A stretch of DNA of 64,000 nucleotides from Treponemataceae bacterium. Its GTDB lineage: Bacteria > Spirochaetota > Spirochaetia > Treponematales > Rectinemataceae. Within the stretch, counting starts at the first letter, position 1, and the number at the start of each line of letters is the position of its first letter. Positions 3,001-15,000 of the stretch are shown one piece after another. Position numbers: made by a program. The stretch is from NCBI GenBank assembly GCA_963677895.2, contig CAXXGJ010000018.1, positions 1 through 64,000 on the forward strand, written 5' to 3'.

Positions 3001-6000
3001 AGGCCGCCGCCGAGCCTCCAGCTTGAATTTCATAGCTGCACCTCCTTCCGCTTCATGATGATGAGCTGAGCGCCCGTCAGGAGGAGAATGGCCAGGAAGA
3101 GCAGGGTGGCCTTGGCGGTGGCCAGCCCGGCCAGCTTGCGCGCGAAAGCGTCAAAGAATATGTCCATCACGAAGGGGACGGTTCCCACCGCGTAGCCCGA
3201 GGTTCCTACCATGGCATAGACGAGATCGAAACATTTGAGGGCGTTGGCGATGGAGATGAAAAAGCACACGGTGAAGGCCGGCATGAGAAGGGGTAGCGTT
3301 ATGCGCTTCAGCCTGTTCCAGAAACCTGCCCCGTCTATCATCGCCGCCTCTATCACATCGGGCGGAATGTTCTGCAGGCCAGCGAGGTATACCACCATAT
3401 AATAGCCGGCGGCCTGCCACACCGAAACGCCGATCAGCAGCCAGGGCGCCTTGGCCGAATCGCTCATCCACGTCTGTATGCCCGTCAGCCTCGGCAGAAG
3501 ATGGAAGAAAATAAAGGACCAGATCAAGGCGACCACGATCATGGACAGCACATTAGGCAGAAAAAATACCGAACGAAGCACGTTGCGCGATTTTATCTTC
3601 CTGTCCAACGCCATCGCTATCCAGAAAGCGAGGAGGTTGGCGAGGACGACATTGCCCACGGCAAAGAATATCGTGAAGCCGATGACGCCGAGGTCGAATT
3701 TTTTCGCCGTCCAGGTCGAGGCGAGGAGGGCCTTGAACCTGCCAATCTTGAAGAGCCTGTCGGCGTTCCGGGCGATGCCCGCTTTCTCCGCGTCCGAAAA
3801 AGTCGCCTTCGCCGCGAAAGCCTTCACGGCGGCCTCGAGAACCGCCCTGTCCTGGGTGAGACCGGCCTTCTTGGCTGAGGCAAGGAAATTGTCCACGGTT
3901 CCCGAGTCGAGGTCGCCCGACTCCACTTGAGGCAGGGTCCAGAAAGCGTCCTCCGCGACGAATTCGTCCATCTCTGGCGCAAGCCGGTACGCGCCACCTT
4001 CCGCCACGTAAAATTCCGCCGCTAAAACCGCACTCTGCGCGTCCAGCCTGACGAGGAAATTCTTCTCGTAGCTTGCGGTTTCCACTTCGGCGGGCAGGGC
4101 GGAATTGGCGTTGAAGTAATTCTCCTGGAAGGCGCGCGGGTAGAAACGTTGATCGACTCCGCCGGTGAAAATGGACCTGTAATTCTCGAGGCCCACATCT
4201 CTGTATTTATCCGGCGCGTATCCCGCGGCCCTCAGGATCCGTTCGAGCCTGTAGCGCCTCAGACCCGAAATCGACAGCCGCGCGTACCGCTCCCCGACCG
4301 CGTCCAGCTCGTACAGCGAAAGCAGATATTCGCGGTCAGGCGCCCTTTCGACCTTGTCCAGGATCTTGGTCTCGAACTCGGCCTTGTCCATGCTTATCGG
4401 CGTTTTCGGCGTCAGCCCATCCCAGTTCGTCGTGGATATCCGCAAGCCCTGCCCGAAAGGTAGGAGAAAGAAAAGGGCATAGAGCAAGAGAGCCGGGGCG
4501 ACGAAGAGGGTGAAATTCATCCGCCGCGTGGAAGATTTTTGAACCATCGATTCCTCCCTGGCTGTGGGCTTCGCCATGCTATTCCCGAAAAAGAAACCGC
4601 TGAAGGCATTCGCGTTAGCCGACAGCGGTTATCCTGAGAGCGAAATCAGCCTAAAGCCGAAGGTCGGTTATTTTCTGTTCGCCGCCCACTGCTTGTCGAT
4701 GTCGGCGATCACGGCCTCGGCCGTCTTCTTGTTGAACACATACTGCTGGGCGCCGTTCTTGCACGCGTCCTCGAACACCGCGGTCGGATAGGAGGCGAAC
4801 GCCCAGGGATAGGCGCCGTTCTTTTCGACGCCGCTCATCAGGTCGACGAAGGGACCGCCGAGCTTGGAAACATCGGCGCCCTTGAACGACAGCGTGAGCT
4901 TGTAATCTTCCACCCATATCTTCTGAGCCTGGGGCGTGGCCAGCCACTCGAGGAACTTGAGGGCCGCGGCTTTCTTGTCGGCGGGCGACTGGGCCGAGAC
5001 TCCGAAGCAGGAATCCACGTCGGCGTAGAACTTGTTCATCTTGGCATCGTTGAAAACGGGGAAGGGCGCGAAGCCGCAGTTGAGTTTGGGGTTCGTTCCG
5101 ATGGCGGCGCCGTAGGACCAAAGTCCCTGGACCATCATCGCCGCCTTGCCCTCGGCAAAGGCCGCCTGCTGCTCATTCCAGTTCCATTCTTCGGCGTTCT
5201 TGTCCATGTTCGCCCGATAGAAGTCGATCACGGAGAAGAGTTTGTCGGTATCCACGACGCCATAGCTGGTCTTTCCGGCGTTCATGTCGGCCACGAACTT
5301 GGCGGGCGCAATCTTCTTTTCGGCGAGGAGGTTAGTATGGACGAGGGTGATGAAGTGTCCCATAGACCAGTTTTCCTTCAGAAGGCCGGCGAAGGGCGTC
5401 ACATTGTTCGTCCGGAGGGTTCGGGCAATTCTCTCGAGATCGCGGTAGGTGGCGGGAGGCTGGAGCCCGAATTTCGCGAAAATGTCCTTGTTGTAGATGA
5501 TGCCGATCCCGGCGAAATCCATCGGCAGACCCCAGAGCTTGCCGTTCCAGGTGACGGAGGGCTTCGAGCTGTCTACCACCTTGCCGAGCACCGCCTGCTT
5601 GGAAAGATCGACCAGATAGCCCTTCTCCGCGTATTCGGCGACGCGGGAATAAGACTGCATCTGCAGGATGTCGGGCAGCTTGCCCTGAGCGGCGCGCGCC
5701 GACATGGTGGCGTCGGCGTCGTTCGGCACGATCAGCATATCGATCGAGATGCCCGGATTATCCTTCACGAACTGCGCCACGAGCTTCTTGAGCCCGTCCT
5801 GGTTTTCCTGTTTATAGTAGTACAGCTCGAGTTTTTGGGCCTGTACCATTCCGGCCAAAGCGAAGAGCACGAGGAGAAGGGATAGCATTCTCTTCATAAA
5901 TTCCTCCATGTAAACCGATTTACATGGAGTTTATCATGACGACGCTATTTGTCAAGGGCAATTGCCGAGACTTGATTTGTCTGAAGCAATGCTACCAATG

Positions 6001-12000: not shown

Positions 12001-15000
12001 AATCGAAACTTTAATGGTATCCGTGTATACTCCTGCATCCCAATAATTTGTCTCAGAGTCTTTTTCCGTAATATCAATGAACATTTTTACGCTTTCGCCT
12101 GCTACAACTGTTTTCTTGATCATTTCATAATAACCATCTTCTTCCGCTGTTGGTGCAACAGCTGCTTTAAGCGGTATATAAGTACCTTCCCAAGTATGAA
12201 CTCCGGCATCCTGAACAAAATCAAATGTATAGGGAATTGACTTAGTTACCTCAGCAGTAACAGGATTAGCCTCTGCAGCCAGCCCAACGGCAGATGCTGC
12301 ATCATGAGTATCGCCTTCACGAACCAATTTGCTACCATTAGTGGAATAAACTGTAACTATCCATTTATTGAAATTACTTTTAAAAAGTGCGGTACCTACT
12401 TGCGTCGGACCAAGTCCGGCTTGGTCTAAATCAAAAGTAGCTGCCGCTAATGTAGTTATCGCAACAGACGCTTGCTTACTAATGGTTCCTGTTAAAGTAA
12501 GTTCACCAGAAGAAGTGCTTTCGGTTAAATCTGATTGTGCAAACGATACACCTACAATTCCGACAAACAATGCAAGCACTAACACAAACTTTTTCATAAT
12601 CCTCTCCCAACAAGTAGCAATGCTACTTAAACTTTTTTTATAGCTGAATACTCAGCTAATTTTCTTTATAAAGAATTCTAGTGAATCATAATAGTTTCGT
12701 CAAGTACTTAAACGCAAATTACTAAAAAAGATAAAATAAAACAAAAAAATGTAAAATCAGCTTATTGTAACGAGGATGGTTACGATGTCGCTATAGACAT
12801 CAGAGACCACCGGGTCGCGCAGATCCTCAAGCCTTTTATAGCTGACCCGTATTGGATACTCCACAGTAGTCTTGGGCACCAGTGTGTTATAGGTCAGAAA
12901 AAACTCCTTGGAAAGATTGATCTGGTCAACAGTGCCAAAATGGAAAAAATACGGGTATACATCTTCGTTGCCCGCCGTCTGACCAACAAGCCTGCCGGCA
13001 TTTTTCGACTTTACCACAATGGTCCACAGGCCCTTTGTGTTGGTGTATACAACAACCTTCCCAAGATAGGCGGACTCGGTGTTAACAAGGTCAACAGTCT
13101 CGATATCGGATAGATCAGTACTGAGAATTAAAACAGGGGGAATAATTCCCTGCAGCTCAAAGGTTACTTCTTTTGAGGTTTGGCCAAAAATAAGGCCGGT
13201 CGAGAGAAGGCAGAACATCAGAAGAACAACTTTTTTCATGTAAACACCCGTTTCATAATCGATAAAAATGGAACTATCACTTTAATCTGAAGGACAGCGT
13301 GTCGTAGAACATGCCGTCCTTGTTGGCAACTATACGAATTCCTTAAAGAGTAGGCTCGGAATCGTAGAAAAAGACTTTTATAGTGTCGGTATACGTTCCT
13401 GCATTGAGCAGATTGGTTGCGTCATAGTGGATTCTCAGAGTTGCCGTGGTGCTGTTTCCTGCAGTGGCCGCGATGGACCCCTTTTTGTCGGCAGTCAATG
13501 AAGCGGGAGCGGTCGTAAGAATGCTACCCAGCGACACAGTGTATGCAAAGGTGTCTCCATTTTCGCTAACCATGATACCTTTGTTGGGAGCAGGGGTCTG
13601 TGACTGAAGTTTGAACCACCACGTCGCATCGATGTTCGTTGCCAAGACTATTGTACCCGCGGTTACGGAATTGCCGGTGCCAGTGCTCGCGGTAAGCGTC
13701 ACAGTATCATTCAGGTTTGAAGTAATACTTGTTCCCGCTGCGATAGTAAGCGATATAGTGATACTATCCTGTCCGGTCTCTGCGGCAAACATAGGAACTG
13801 CTACAAACAATACCGCGATGGCAATTAGAAAAAACTTTTTCATAATCCCTTCCCTTTGGGTGAATCCTCACCCTACTTATATGAATTGGTATGAGTTTTA
13901 CTCTATTTTGAAATATTGTCAATAGCGCGGGAATAGAATCATATAATAAATGTACATAAAGATATTTTTGGGACATATTCTCTAATGCATAGGAATTCGA
14001 AATCCTTCTTGACACAATCCGGATTCGCAGTATATATCTTGTTGCGTGTCATGCCTGCATGCAGGCAATTCGTCGGGTTCGGGCGGTTAGCTCAGTTGGT
14101 TAGAGCACCAGTATGACACGCTGGGGGTCGCAAGTTCGACTCTTGCACCGCCCATTCCAAGCAAGGCTGTTCACTTTTGGTGAACAGCCTTTTCTTATCG
14201 CTTCGCCCGAGGCGGGTAGGTCTTTTTCGGATCCCATGAGCCTTCGCGGAGTTCGCCGCCGATGCTCGGTATTTTAATCACCTGTCCCGGTCGGAGCAGG
14301 TTGGGATTGGATGGATCGGGAAGCGTCGTTTTGTTAGCTTTGTAGAGGATTGTCCATTTGTATGGATCATTGTAGCCGAAGGGGCTGGCGGCAATGCTCC
14401 AGAGATTGTCCATATTCTTCCGTTCGGGAACCATGCCTATCTTGTAGGTGGCCGGCAAGGGGGCGAATTCGCTTATGCCCTCGAGTATGACTCTGGCCGA
14501 TTCTGCCTTGGCCGAAGCGGTGAGCGAATCGCCGGAATCGAAGGCTTGCCGCGACGCTTCTAGCTCCTTCGCGCCTTTGGCGAGGAGGGCCGGGTAGTTG
14601 TTCCGGGCGTTTCGGGCGACAGCCTTGTCGTAAGCATTCCTGGCTTGATCGATCGCATCGAGGATTTCGGTTTCGGCGGACTGGTCTTTCTCGAAGGGAG
14701 GATAAGTCTTTCCGGGATCCCAGGTGCCGCTTCTAATCTCTCCCCGTATGCTTGGGATGACGATTACTTGGCCAGTACGGAGAAGGTTGGGATTGGCGGG
14801 ATCCCAGAGGCTCGACTTGTTGGCTTCATAGAGAATTGTCCATTTCCGCGCATCGTTGTAGCCATATTCGGCCCCCGCTATGCTCGCGAAGCTATCCTTG
14901 CCTTTACGTTCGGGGAGGAGATCCACGATGTAAGCCGCGGGGAGTGCGGCGTATTCCTCAATGCCCGAAAGGATAGCGGGAGAGGTCGCTTCATTGGTGA

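Follow-up and report, generated by a model that had tools for sequence, protein, structure and literature searches.

An archaic-type chaperone–usher pilus operon predicted in a spirochaete of the family Rectinemataceae

Gene layout and family searches

The window analysed was the first 64,000 nucleotides of contig CAXXGJ010000018.1 (assembly GCA_963677895.2, a bacterium of the family Rectinemataceae). Eight minus-strand open reading frames lie within 5992–13843, exactly where the initial annotation had placed eight genes, and all frames are intact (table 1); protein lengths were also as given there, except that the usher has 824 residues rather than 823. A hydrophobic signal-like segment was seen by eye at the N-terminus of all eight proteins. 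The G+C content is 40–53% in the operon and about 56–60% in the flanks.

Table 1. Predicted features of the operon, in order of transcription.
Feature	Position	Strand	Evidence
166-aa secreted protein, predicted SCPU-like pilin, first gene	13343..13843	-	ORF, weak full-length SCPU row, profile match to CsuE, hhalign, model match to CsuA/B
160-aa secreted protein, predicted SCPU-like pilin, minor or alternative subunit	12757..13239	-	ORF, C-terminal motif, hhalign, orthologue in locus L025
202-aa secreted protein, predicted SCPU-like pilin	11989..12597	-	ORF, C-terminal motif, hhalign
Terminator-like hairpin	11922..11953	-	pattern scan, consensus match only
Periplasmic PapD-like chaperone A, 246 aa	11021..11761	-	PapD_N, CsuC match of profile A3
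196-aa secreted protein, probably pilin	10314..10904	-	ORF, C-terminal motif, weak hhalign, Atlas neighbour
Periplasmic PapD-like chaperone B, 260-aa ORF	9512..10294	-	PapD_N, DNA-level duplication, paralogue pairing in tree
Outer-membrane usher, 824 aa	7057..9531	-	Usher PF00577; profile A4 matches FimD, PapC
327-aa two-domain protein in CsuE position, candidate tip adhesin	5992..6975	-	model match to CsuE, hhalign, C-terminal motif

The hairpin, a consensus match only, consists of a stem of 14 bp with a T-rich tail behind it, lies between the three putative pilin genes and chaperone A, and may act as an attenuator. The usher frame shares 20 nt with the end of chaperone B. The true start of the 196-aa protein is likely to be Met codon 15 (about position 10862), and that of chaperone B, because of its alignment with chaperone A, is likely to be Met codon 13 (about position 10258).

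Repeated Pfam scans returned the rows reported earlier, namely Usher (PF00577, cut-off 27.1) at 42.5 bits over residues 195–719, PapD_N (PF00345, cut-off 23) at 34.3 bits in chaperone B (previously 34.5) and 33.3 bits in chaperone A, and a DUF4403 row of 16.1 bits (E 0.0046) in the 196-aa protein; PapC_N and PapC_C were not detected by Pfam in the usher. The five remaining proteins matched no Pfam or NCBIfam family over its cut-off, as had been claimed for Pfam. The gathering score of SCPU (PF05229), 22.4, was reached by none of the five; the best was a weak full-length row of 10.9 bits in the 166-aa protein (E 0.6, profile positions 6–137 of 138), and the other four gave no SCPU row in the Pfam scan. 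The weak row is absent from the initial annotation. The family of the 166-aa protein is small: out of 1.84 billion cluster representatives, 31 reached E ≤ 0.001.

The usher match is the only one in the whole genome, and its profile (A4) matched FimD (E 7.5e-9) and PapC (4e-6). The chaperone profile (A3), compared with solved chaperones, matched CsuC (E 1.7e-6), EcpB (1e-3), 4ncd and CfaA (0.017), and none of the classical chaperones PapD, FimC and Caf1M at E ≤ 1; by sequence, the chaperones are assigned to the non-classical, CsuC-like kind. Chaperones A and B are 69% identical, pair as paralogues in the chaperone tree and lie in a duplication detectable in the DNA (9510–10178 versus 11019–11681, 72–74% identity, spacing about 1503–1509 nt). 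They are read as products of an old tandem duplication of a subunit-plus-chaperone unit, and each may serve a different set of subunits.

Relationship of the subunits to SCPU pilins

A C-terminal motif, G/S/V-x-Y-x-D-x-h-x-h, is common to all five subunits and aligns with AGTYQDTVTV of CsuE, reading V-Y-S-D-I-V-T-I in the 160-aa, A-G-V-Y-T-D-T-I-K-V in the 202-aa, S-G-E-Y-Q-D-I-I-L-L in the 196-aa and A-G-R-Y-S-D-V-L-Q-L in the 327-aa protein. The profile of the 166-aa family (A1) matched the CsuE pilin domain (E 0.014). In hhalign comparisons, the figures of which are somewhat inflated because the alignments take in signal peptides, the 166-aa family scored 98.4% against the small subunits of related operons, the 160-aa, 202-aa and 196-aa proteins scored 95.6% (E 1.2e-8), 97.5% (E 5.8e-12) and only 59.7% (E 8.9e-5), respectively, against subunits of related operons (A6), and the 327-aa family scored 97.8% (E 7.6e-13, 290 columns) against the SCPU-positive proteins that follow the usher in other operons. 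Thirty neighbours of related chaperones were scanned for SCPU: 12 long proteins encoded after the usher, 8 of which passed the cut-off (three of these eight from spirochaetes, including Rectinema subterraneum), and 18 small proteins, 5 of which gave sub-threshold rows. When 26 distant relatives of the 166-aa protein were considered, one was over the SCPU cut-off and five had sub-threshold rows. In the ESM Atlas, a neighbour cluster of the 327-aa protein bears the name 'Spore Coat Protein U domain-containing protein' and has Spirochaetota as its commonest phylum, and one of the 196-aa protein is called 'putative Spore coat protein U domain-containing protein'. By eye, the subunit N-termini show alternating hydrophobic stretches behind the signal peptides.

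From these comparisons, the five subunits are assigned to the SCPU pilin superfamily, in which they are distant members and which defines archaic (sigma, Csu-like) systems, and their scores below the cut-off are read as divergence, not lack of homology; the 196-aa protein is probably a pilin, the weakest assignment of the five. The 166-aa protein, because its gene comes first, is the likely candidate for the major stalk pilin. For annotation, such subunits below the SCPU cut-off can be recognised by operon position, the C-terminal G-x-Y-x-D motif and profile–profile comparison.

Structure models were of moderate confidence (pLDDT 72.9 for the 166-aa and 67.3 for the 327-aa protein). Among 48,161 solved chains, the best match of the 166-aa model was CsuA/B in the Csu pilus (7zl4_A, Z 8.3, 115 residues at rmsd 2.9). 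The best solved match of the 327-aa model was CsuE (6fjy_D, Z 8.5, rmsd 14.4 over 232 aligned residues). Both Z scores are in a range that is common, according to the tool, where a model has no clear match. All four Foldseek matches of the 166-aa model at E ≤ 0.001 were chaperone–usher pilins. The 327-aa model comprises two beta domains, an N-terminal beta-sandwich (about 25–193) and a C-terminal pilin domain (about 194–327), the latter matching CsuA/B with Z 7.9; to judge from the high rmsd, the orientation of the domains differs from that in CsuE. Its low-confidence loops (residues 76–92 and 106–116) are polar and aromatic, not hydrophobic (by eye only).

We put at roughly 0.85 the probability that the operon encodes surface fibres, predicted here from genes and models, that are assembled by the archaic (sigma, Csu-like) chaperone–usher pathway. 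The class is based on SCPU-homologous subunits, on CsuC-like chaperones and on the two-domain protein encoded behind the usher. In the Nuccio and Baumler scheme of usher phylogeny, cited in PMC4654587, archaic systems have ushers of the sigma clade. The earlier description of a chaperone–usher fimbrial operon with a protein in the position of a tip adhesin holds, with usher and chaperones over their cut-offs and a two-domain 327-aa protein.

The same machinery could instead build a non-fimbrial surface layer or coat, like the SCPU proteins of Myxococcus spores, from which the family was named and whose coat has its own usher system. The subunits do fall in the SCPU superfamily, and in one genus of the family the operon consists of chaperone, usher and two-domain SCPU protein alone, no small subunit lying adjacent; the window operon, however, has the full Csu-like set of several small subunits and a two-domain protein after the usher, its best structural matches are the stalk and tip subunits of Csu pili, and we know of no sporulation in the source lineage, so that a coat is considered improbable.

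The initial annotation had described the five proteins as a family-less, very divergent new type of pilin, which would imply a new chaperone–usher class with subunits unrelated to known families. The failure of all five to pass any family cut-off and the small size of the 166-aa family accord with this, but the profile–profile links to SCPU-bearing operons (95.6–98.4% for four of the five), the motif in common with CsuE, the models matching CsuA/B and CsuE best and the closeness of CsuC among solved chaperones connect them to SCPU, and a new class is given a still smaller chance.

Occurrence in spirochaetes

Of the other 68 genomes in the family, 26 gave an Usher match at E ≤ 0.001 (27 of 69 with the source genome) and 16 gave one over the Pfam cut-off; the earlier count of at least 11 of 68 was a fair lower bound. 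Intact usher frames of about 820–860 aa are present in 27 of 69 genomes. The operon lies in a spirochaete lineage, as had been claimed. The chaperone tree places 45 of 46 Spirochaetota rows together in a single group. An operon order of subunit(s), chaperone, usher and then a two-domain protein of roughly 310 aa recurs in spirochaetes, Pseudomonadota, Bdellovibrionota and Verrucomicrobiota. In a genome of another genus (locus L025) the operon stands beside the same ABC-transporter genes as in the window and includes a 61%-identical orthologue of the 160-aa protein, and the cultured isolate Rectinema subterraneum has an usher match in a three-gene version of the operon. That the operon is foreign to the spirochaete (a mis-binned or chimeric contig) or a decaying relic is the least probable reading, for which the estimated 5.46% contamination of the bin, the lower G+C content and the non-spirochaete bin labels of some related contigs (e.g. 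Shapirobacteria, Desulfobulbia) can be cited, but against which stand a 9,173-base public-run contig that spans 4938–14110 with no differences and so carries the complete operon together with the ABC-transporter gene of its flank, the shared neighbourhood at L025, the usher matches across the family and in R. subterraneum, and eight intact frames.

Usher relatives occur in just 1 of the 29 flagellin-bearing genomes of the family, and the source spirochaete itself seems to be without flagella. This near-restriction to flagellin-free genomes suggests that motility loss is linked to the keeping of adhesive fibres, which is testable; experiments are possible because cultured R. subterraneum carries the three-gene version. 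A broader and tentative proposal, which we think rather unlikely as a whole, is that Spirochaetota own an old clade of archaic fibres, kept in this family almost only where periplasmic flagella were lost, that in these non-motile spirochaetes adhesive fibres would have become the chief means of dealing with surfaces, and that having two chaperones would enable a single usher to make, out of the five subunits, either two fibre types or one long composite tip.

Full-text literature searches found no paper on chaperone–usher pili in spirochaetes, which supports the earlier reading on this point, and the operon is read as one of a known archaic type that appears undescribed in the phylum Spirochaetota. 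It is nevertheless less unknown than was implied, since these chaperones already carry the names 'fimbrial chaperone protein' and 'fimbria/pilus periplasmic chaperone [Rectinema sp.]' in public pipelines, and the Atlas contains the SCPU cluster named above. The spirochaete clade extends the published range of archaic chaperone–usher pili, given in PMC4654587 as Proteobacteria, Cyanobacteria and Deinococcus-Thermus, and places fibres of this kind in bacteria whose outer membrane is unusual.

Proposed assembly and comparison with known systems

By analogy with Csu pili, the five subunits would be exported by Sec and each captured in the periplasm by one of the two PapD-like chaperones, which would supply the missing beta-strand of the incomplete Ig-like SCPU fold. 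The chaperone–subunit complexes would then dock on the single outer-membrane usher, with the 327-aa two-domain protein entering first and forming an adhesive tip; the small subunits would be added singly, the N-terminal strand of each displacing the chaperone strand of the previous subunit, and the fibre would grow outward via the usher pore. The gene content and order, the homology of usher, chaperones and subunits and the distribution among genomes are direct results of the analysis; strand complementation and exchange, the subunit order, the identity of the major subunit and the adhesive role are all modelled on that analogy. Archaic rods are described in PMC9452303 as a zigzag held by a clinch of A'-A''/B-B' hairpins.

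The prototype archaic system, Csu of Acinetobacter baumannii (csuA/B-A-B-C-D-E), likewise opens with several small subunits of the SCPU type, continues with chaperone and usher and closes with a two-domain tip protein, and the likeness extends to CsuC as the closest solved chaperone, to CsuA/B and CsuE as best structural matches and to the C-terminal G-x-Y-x-D-T-V motif of CsuE. The window operon differs in having two chaperones and five subunits, in subunits that lie below the Pfam SCPU cut-off and, in mature form, contain no cysteines (by eye), in a 327-aa protein without evident hydrophobic finger motifs (by eye) of the kind described for CsuE in PMC6003481, and in its host, an anaerobic, apparently aflagellate spirochaete. 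The archaic CupE system of Pseudomonas aeruginosa contributed a subunit to the structural matches of the 166-aa model (8cio_A, Z 6.6) and, according to PMC10104325, is likewise encoded by an operon that includes several minor subunits besides a two-domain tip protein. Its sequences gave no detectable match to the window proteins. For CupE, regulation and a role in biofilms are known.

In the alternative class, EcpB of the E. coli common pilus was the second-best solved chaperone match (E 1e-3) and EcpA was among the top Foldseek matches of the 166-aa model. The Ecp operon also has two chaperones, EcpB and EcpE; those of the window are paralogues, and the window subunits link to SCPU, not to Ecp families.

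Outside Proteobacteria, SCPU subunits with a PapD_N chaperone are described for CccS/CccP of Synechocystis (PMC4390875). Chaperones from cyanobacterial loci with SCPU, PapD_N and usher genes were among the relatives of the window chaperones (29–33% identity) and occupy a branch of their own in the chaperone tree; two of these loci (L087 and L076) have no two-domain protein after the usher, and a third (L101) stops at its chaperone.

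Operon layout and assembly genes

The eight minus-strand ORFs are arranged head to tail, in the order 166-, 160- and 202-aa proteins, chaperone A, 196-aa protein, chaperone B, usher and 327-aa protein (candidate tip adhesin), and the coordinates of the initial annotation were exact. The usher gene overlaps the 3' end of the chaperone B gene by 20 nt; elsewhere, neighbouring genes lie 19 to 227 nt apart. The Pfam rows reported earlier were recovered (Usher, 42.5 bits; PapD_N, 34.3 and 33.3 bits; DUF4403, 16.1 bits, for the 196-aa protein); none of the five remaining operon proteins had a Pfam family above cut-off, and an NCBIfam scan of the operon proteins gave rows far below threshold and zero above cut-offs. 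The operon is real and a chaperone-usher system, as had been proposed; the chaperones are already named fimbrial by automatic annotation.

Features of the operon and its upstream flank
Feature	Position	Strand	Remarks
Operon, eight genes	5992-13843	minus	
327-aa protein	5992-6975	minus	two beta domains in predicted model
Usher	7057-9531	minus	
Chaperone B	9512-10294	minus	
Chaperone A	11021-11761	minus	
Terminator-like hairpin	11922-11953	minus	14-bp stem; directly 3' of third pilin gene, before chaperone A
tRNA-Val(GAC)	14081-14154	opposite to operon	237 nt upstream of operon's first gene
864-aa secreted protein	14195-16789	minus	read by eye
tRNA-Phe(GAA)	16949-17021		2.8 kb beyond tRNA-Val(GAC)

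The source genome is binned, its 39 contigs totalling 3.51 Mb (completeness 92.8%, contamination 5.46%), and the search gave one copy of the usher in it. The operon locus belongs to the source organism. A public-run contig of 9,173 bases spans 4938-14110 with zero differences and links an ABC-transporter gene to the entire operon; in another study, one run contained 98% of sampled words and covered the operon in pieces, including 10269-13877. None of the public runs listed for the stretch is recorded as RNA. Small shares of it are listed for metagenomes from groundwater, biofilm and rock, from which no habitat is deduced. The left-hand junction is identical in kind at a related locus in a genome of another genus (L025), where two chaperones and three adhesin-like genes adjoin the same ABC-transporter genes.

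The usher as a single sequence matched no solved structure at E <= 1, and PapC_N and PapC_C were undetected in it by Pfam; a profile of seven ushers (A4) matched FimD (E 7.5e-9) and PapC (4e-6). A profile of 20 chaperones (A3) matched first the archaic chaperone CsuC (E 1.7e-6), then EcpB (1e-3), 4ncd (1e-3) and CfaA (0.017; alternative class), with no classical chaperone at E <= 1. Residues 134-150 of chaperone A form a conserved stretch, SGV-ILL-YVAALYVTP, that aligns with VSFQMRYSIPLFAY in CsuC and coincides with strand 131-145, which had been set against the subunit in the earlier complex model; it is presumably the G1 donor strand.

Chaperones A and B are 69% identical, and at the DNA level 9510-10178 repeats 11019-11681, about 1503-1509 nt away, at 72-74% identity; a [subunit + chaperone] unit has therefore undergone tandem duplication. 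In the chaperone tree, A and B each pair with a different paralogue from one related locus (L026; SH-aLRT 99 and 98), and the duplication therefore predates the split from the L026 genome.

Assignment of the five subunits

The five subunits had been taken for very divergent pilins belonging to no family. Pairwise similarity among them is almost nil; one C-terminal motif is common to all five. The 166-aa protein also gave a weak row for spore coat protein U (SCPU, PF05229), unmentioned in the initial annotation (E 0.6), that is full-length, covering profile positions 6-137 of 138. Its close homologues number 11 (54-93% identity). Its single-sequence search of solved structures gave no meaningful match; the profile of its family (A1) was needed, and it matched the pilin domain of CsuE at E 0.014, aligned through the C-terminal motif. 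CsuE, from the archaic Csu pilus, is described in PMC6003481 as a tip adhesin of two domains that lacks a donor strand and bears hydrophobic finger loops. Profile A1 was then compared with 1.84 billion cluster representatives, giving 31 proteins at E <= 0.001. A Pfam scan took 26 of these, after exclusion of three long proteins with multiple repeats and of two from the 166-aa protein's own family, and gave SCPU above cut-off in one (25.5 bits), below threshold in five and not at all in 20.

The related loci read repeat the order of small subunit(s), chaperone, usher and a roughly 310-aa protein that shares the C-terminal motif. A Pfam scan was made of 30 neighbour proteins from related loci, 12 long (downstream of the usher) and 18 small. 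Eight of the long proteins were above the SCPU cut-off (27.0 to 53.1 bits); spirochaetes supply three of the eight, among them one from the isolate Rectinema subterraneum; among the small proteins, 5/18 had sub-threshold SCPU rows and 13/18 none. The operon's subunits were aligned by hhalign with profiles of the SCPU-positive long proteins (A5) and of the small subunits of related operons (A6); the alignments contain signal peptides, which raises the scores, yet extend to the C-terminal motif. Two Atlas clusters were taken as leads only: an SCPU-named cluster, with Spirochaetota as its commonest phylum, adjoins the 327-aa protein, and a 'putative Spore coat protein U domain-containing protein' cluster adjoins the 196-aa protein.

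C-terminal motifs of the five subunits and their hhalign results
Subunit	C-terminal motif	Aligned as	Profile	hhalign result
166 aa	AGTYTDTIKV	family	A6	98.4%, E 8.5e-15
160 aa	SDVYSDIVTI	protein	A6	95.6%, E 1.2e-8
202 aa	AGVYTDTIKV	protein	A6	97.5%, E 5.8e-12
196 aa	SGEYQDIILL	protein	A6	59.7%, E 8.9e-5
327 aa	AGRYSDVLQL	family	A5	97.8%, E 7.6e-13, 290 columns

The tool warns that models without a clear match commonly reach a best Z of 7-8, and fold matches are therefore counted only alongside the sequence evidence. The AlphaFold model of the 166-aa protein (pLDDT 72.9) gave four Foldseek matches at E <= 0.001, all of them chaperone-usher pilins (two chains of DaaE, EcpA and DraE; TM scores 0.42-0.49). 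Among 48,161 representative solved chains its top match, and the sole chain at Z >= 8, was CsuA/B in the Csu pilus (7zl4_A; Z 8.3, rmsd 2.9, 115 residues), with a CupE pilus subunit and the CsuE pilin domain each at Z 6.6. The top match of the 327-aa model (pLDDT 67.3) was CsuE (6fjy_D; Z 8.5, 232 residues, rmsd 14.4), the domains agreeing and their relative orientation differing in the prediction; its C-terminal domain alone matched CsuA/B (Z 7.9), CooA (7.9) and FimA (7.5). A homotrimer prediction for the mature 166-aa protein, made with strand exchange in mind, scored 0.41 where the mark is 0.42 (controls, 0.00-0.01).

The motif, the hhalign results and the CsuE profile match place the five subunits as divergent SCPU pilins rather than a new pilin class, and the operon is therefore a member of the known archaic chaperone-usher class, not of a new one. 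The archaic class is called the most diverse and most widespread chaperone-usher class in PMC9452303; two further papers give archaic systems as known in alpha- to delta-proteobacteria, Cyanobacteria and Deinococcus-Thermus (PMC4654587) and cyanobacterial chaperone-usher loci as marked by SCPU and PapD_N (PMC4390875). Strand complementation, the order of the subunits, the formation of fibres and an adhesive role are what we infer for this operon.

Distribution and relation to flagellin

Among the 69 genomes of the family, usher matches were found in 27 at E <= 0.001 (17 above cut-off; 12 of 21 genera), with open frames of 818-890 aa save two of 639 and 652 aa. The window's usher matched 4/401 genomes of an even Spirochaetota sample, its own counted. 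A chaperone profile scan of species-representative genomes gave 164 relatives, of which the best 80 stretches (77 loci) were kept. These include many Spirochaetota bins labelled Rectinema, Treponema, Spirochaeta or Alkalispirochaeta, the isolate Rectinema subterraneum SURF-ANA1 and, at 29-40% identity, Pseudomonadota, Bdellovibrionota, Verrucomicrobiota and Cyanobacteria.

In a chaperone tree of 82 sequences, 45 of 46 Spirochaetota rows fell in one group of 53 rows (SH-aLRT 93, under the tool's star threshold). The 80 stretches kept were those that best matched a profile of mainly spirochaetal sequences, so the sample favours spirochaetes. Some short contigs binned under other labels, probably wrongly, belong to the group too. 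Odd labels were seen at L027, L031, L036, L071 and L089 (Shapirobacteria, Desulfobulbia, Leptospira biflexa, Saccharibacteria and WWE3); the contigs carry chaperones resembling spirochaetal or proteobacterial ones, those at L027, L031 and L036 being placed inside the spirochaete group, and the labels are probably binning or labelling errors. G+C is 40-53% within the operon against about 56-60% in the flanks; this low G+C notwithstanding, the pattern of ushers and chaperones suggests long residence in Spirochaetota and not recent transfer.

Five loci of one genus, that of Rectinema subterraneum (L018, L019, L020, L036 and L042), consist only of a chaperone, an usher and a protein of about 305-310 aa that carries two SCPU-like domains; no gene for a small subunit adjoins them. 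In two of the three genomes of this kind searched, weak SCPU-like ORFs of 163-196 aa lie >100 kb off on the same contig.

The source genome gave no match to flagellin or to the flagellar rod family, which in a 92.8% complete bin is not proof of absence. Flagellin was found in 29 of the 69 family genomes (8/21 genera). One genome had both usher and flagellin, 26 usher without flagellin, 28 flagellin without usher and 14 neither; by genus, the usher was present in 1/8 flagellate versus 11/13 aflagellate genera. These counts were crossed by hand from related genomes with kinship uncontrolled, and are a description rather than a test. Given this kinship, and with the aflagellate genera perhaps forming one clade, the pattern could reflect very few evolutionary events. 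Outside the family, two complete genomes carry operon and flagellin, and a third an usher-like gene without flagellin.

A full-text literature search, with most subscription journals outside its coverage, gave no description of chaperone-usher pili in a spirochaete, nor any paper on fimbriae, pili, an usher or lack of motility in Rectinema. A T-Mac study in Treponema denticola cites Csu work for the general Ig-like fold only (PMC11833123), and the survey in PMC4793230 leaves chaperone-usher systems out. New are the host phylum, at least in print, a spirochaete-specific clade, the presence of a duplicated chaperone alongside five subunits, and the near-exclusive tie to aflagellate lineages inside the family.

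Flanking and intergenic sequence

Public-run contigs break at both tRNA genes, where read depth is high, as expected because tRNA genes are conserved. A tRNA-integrated island was considered and rejected: tRNA-Val points away with the operon on its 5' side, which is not the usual geometry, and direct repeats, looked for at both flanks, were not found. By eye and ORF translation, a tRNA-like stretch was also seen 5' of the chaperone gene in related loci of another genus. A sigma-70 promoter scan of the interval from the first gene to the tRNA gave zero sites. The hairpin before chaperone A, a putative attenuator, could lower read-through to the assembly genes. The 202-aa and 166-aa genes are 91% identical over 23 nt of their RBS and start regions (12586-12608 and 13832-13854). 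The 864-aa protein has a Thr/Pro-rich start, a long repetitive Ala/Glu-rich middle and two near-identical C-terminal modules (…YGYND..KWTILY.ANK…NPNLL..GQVI.IPS…), which look like LysM-type repeats.
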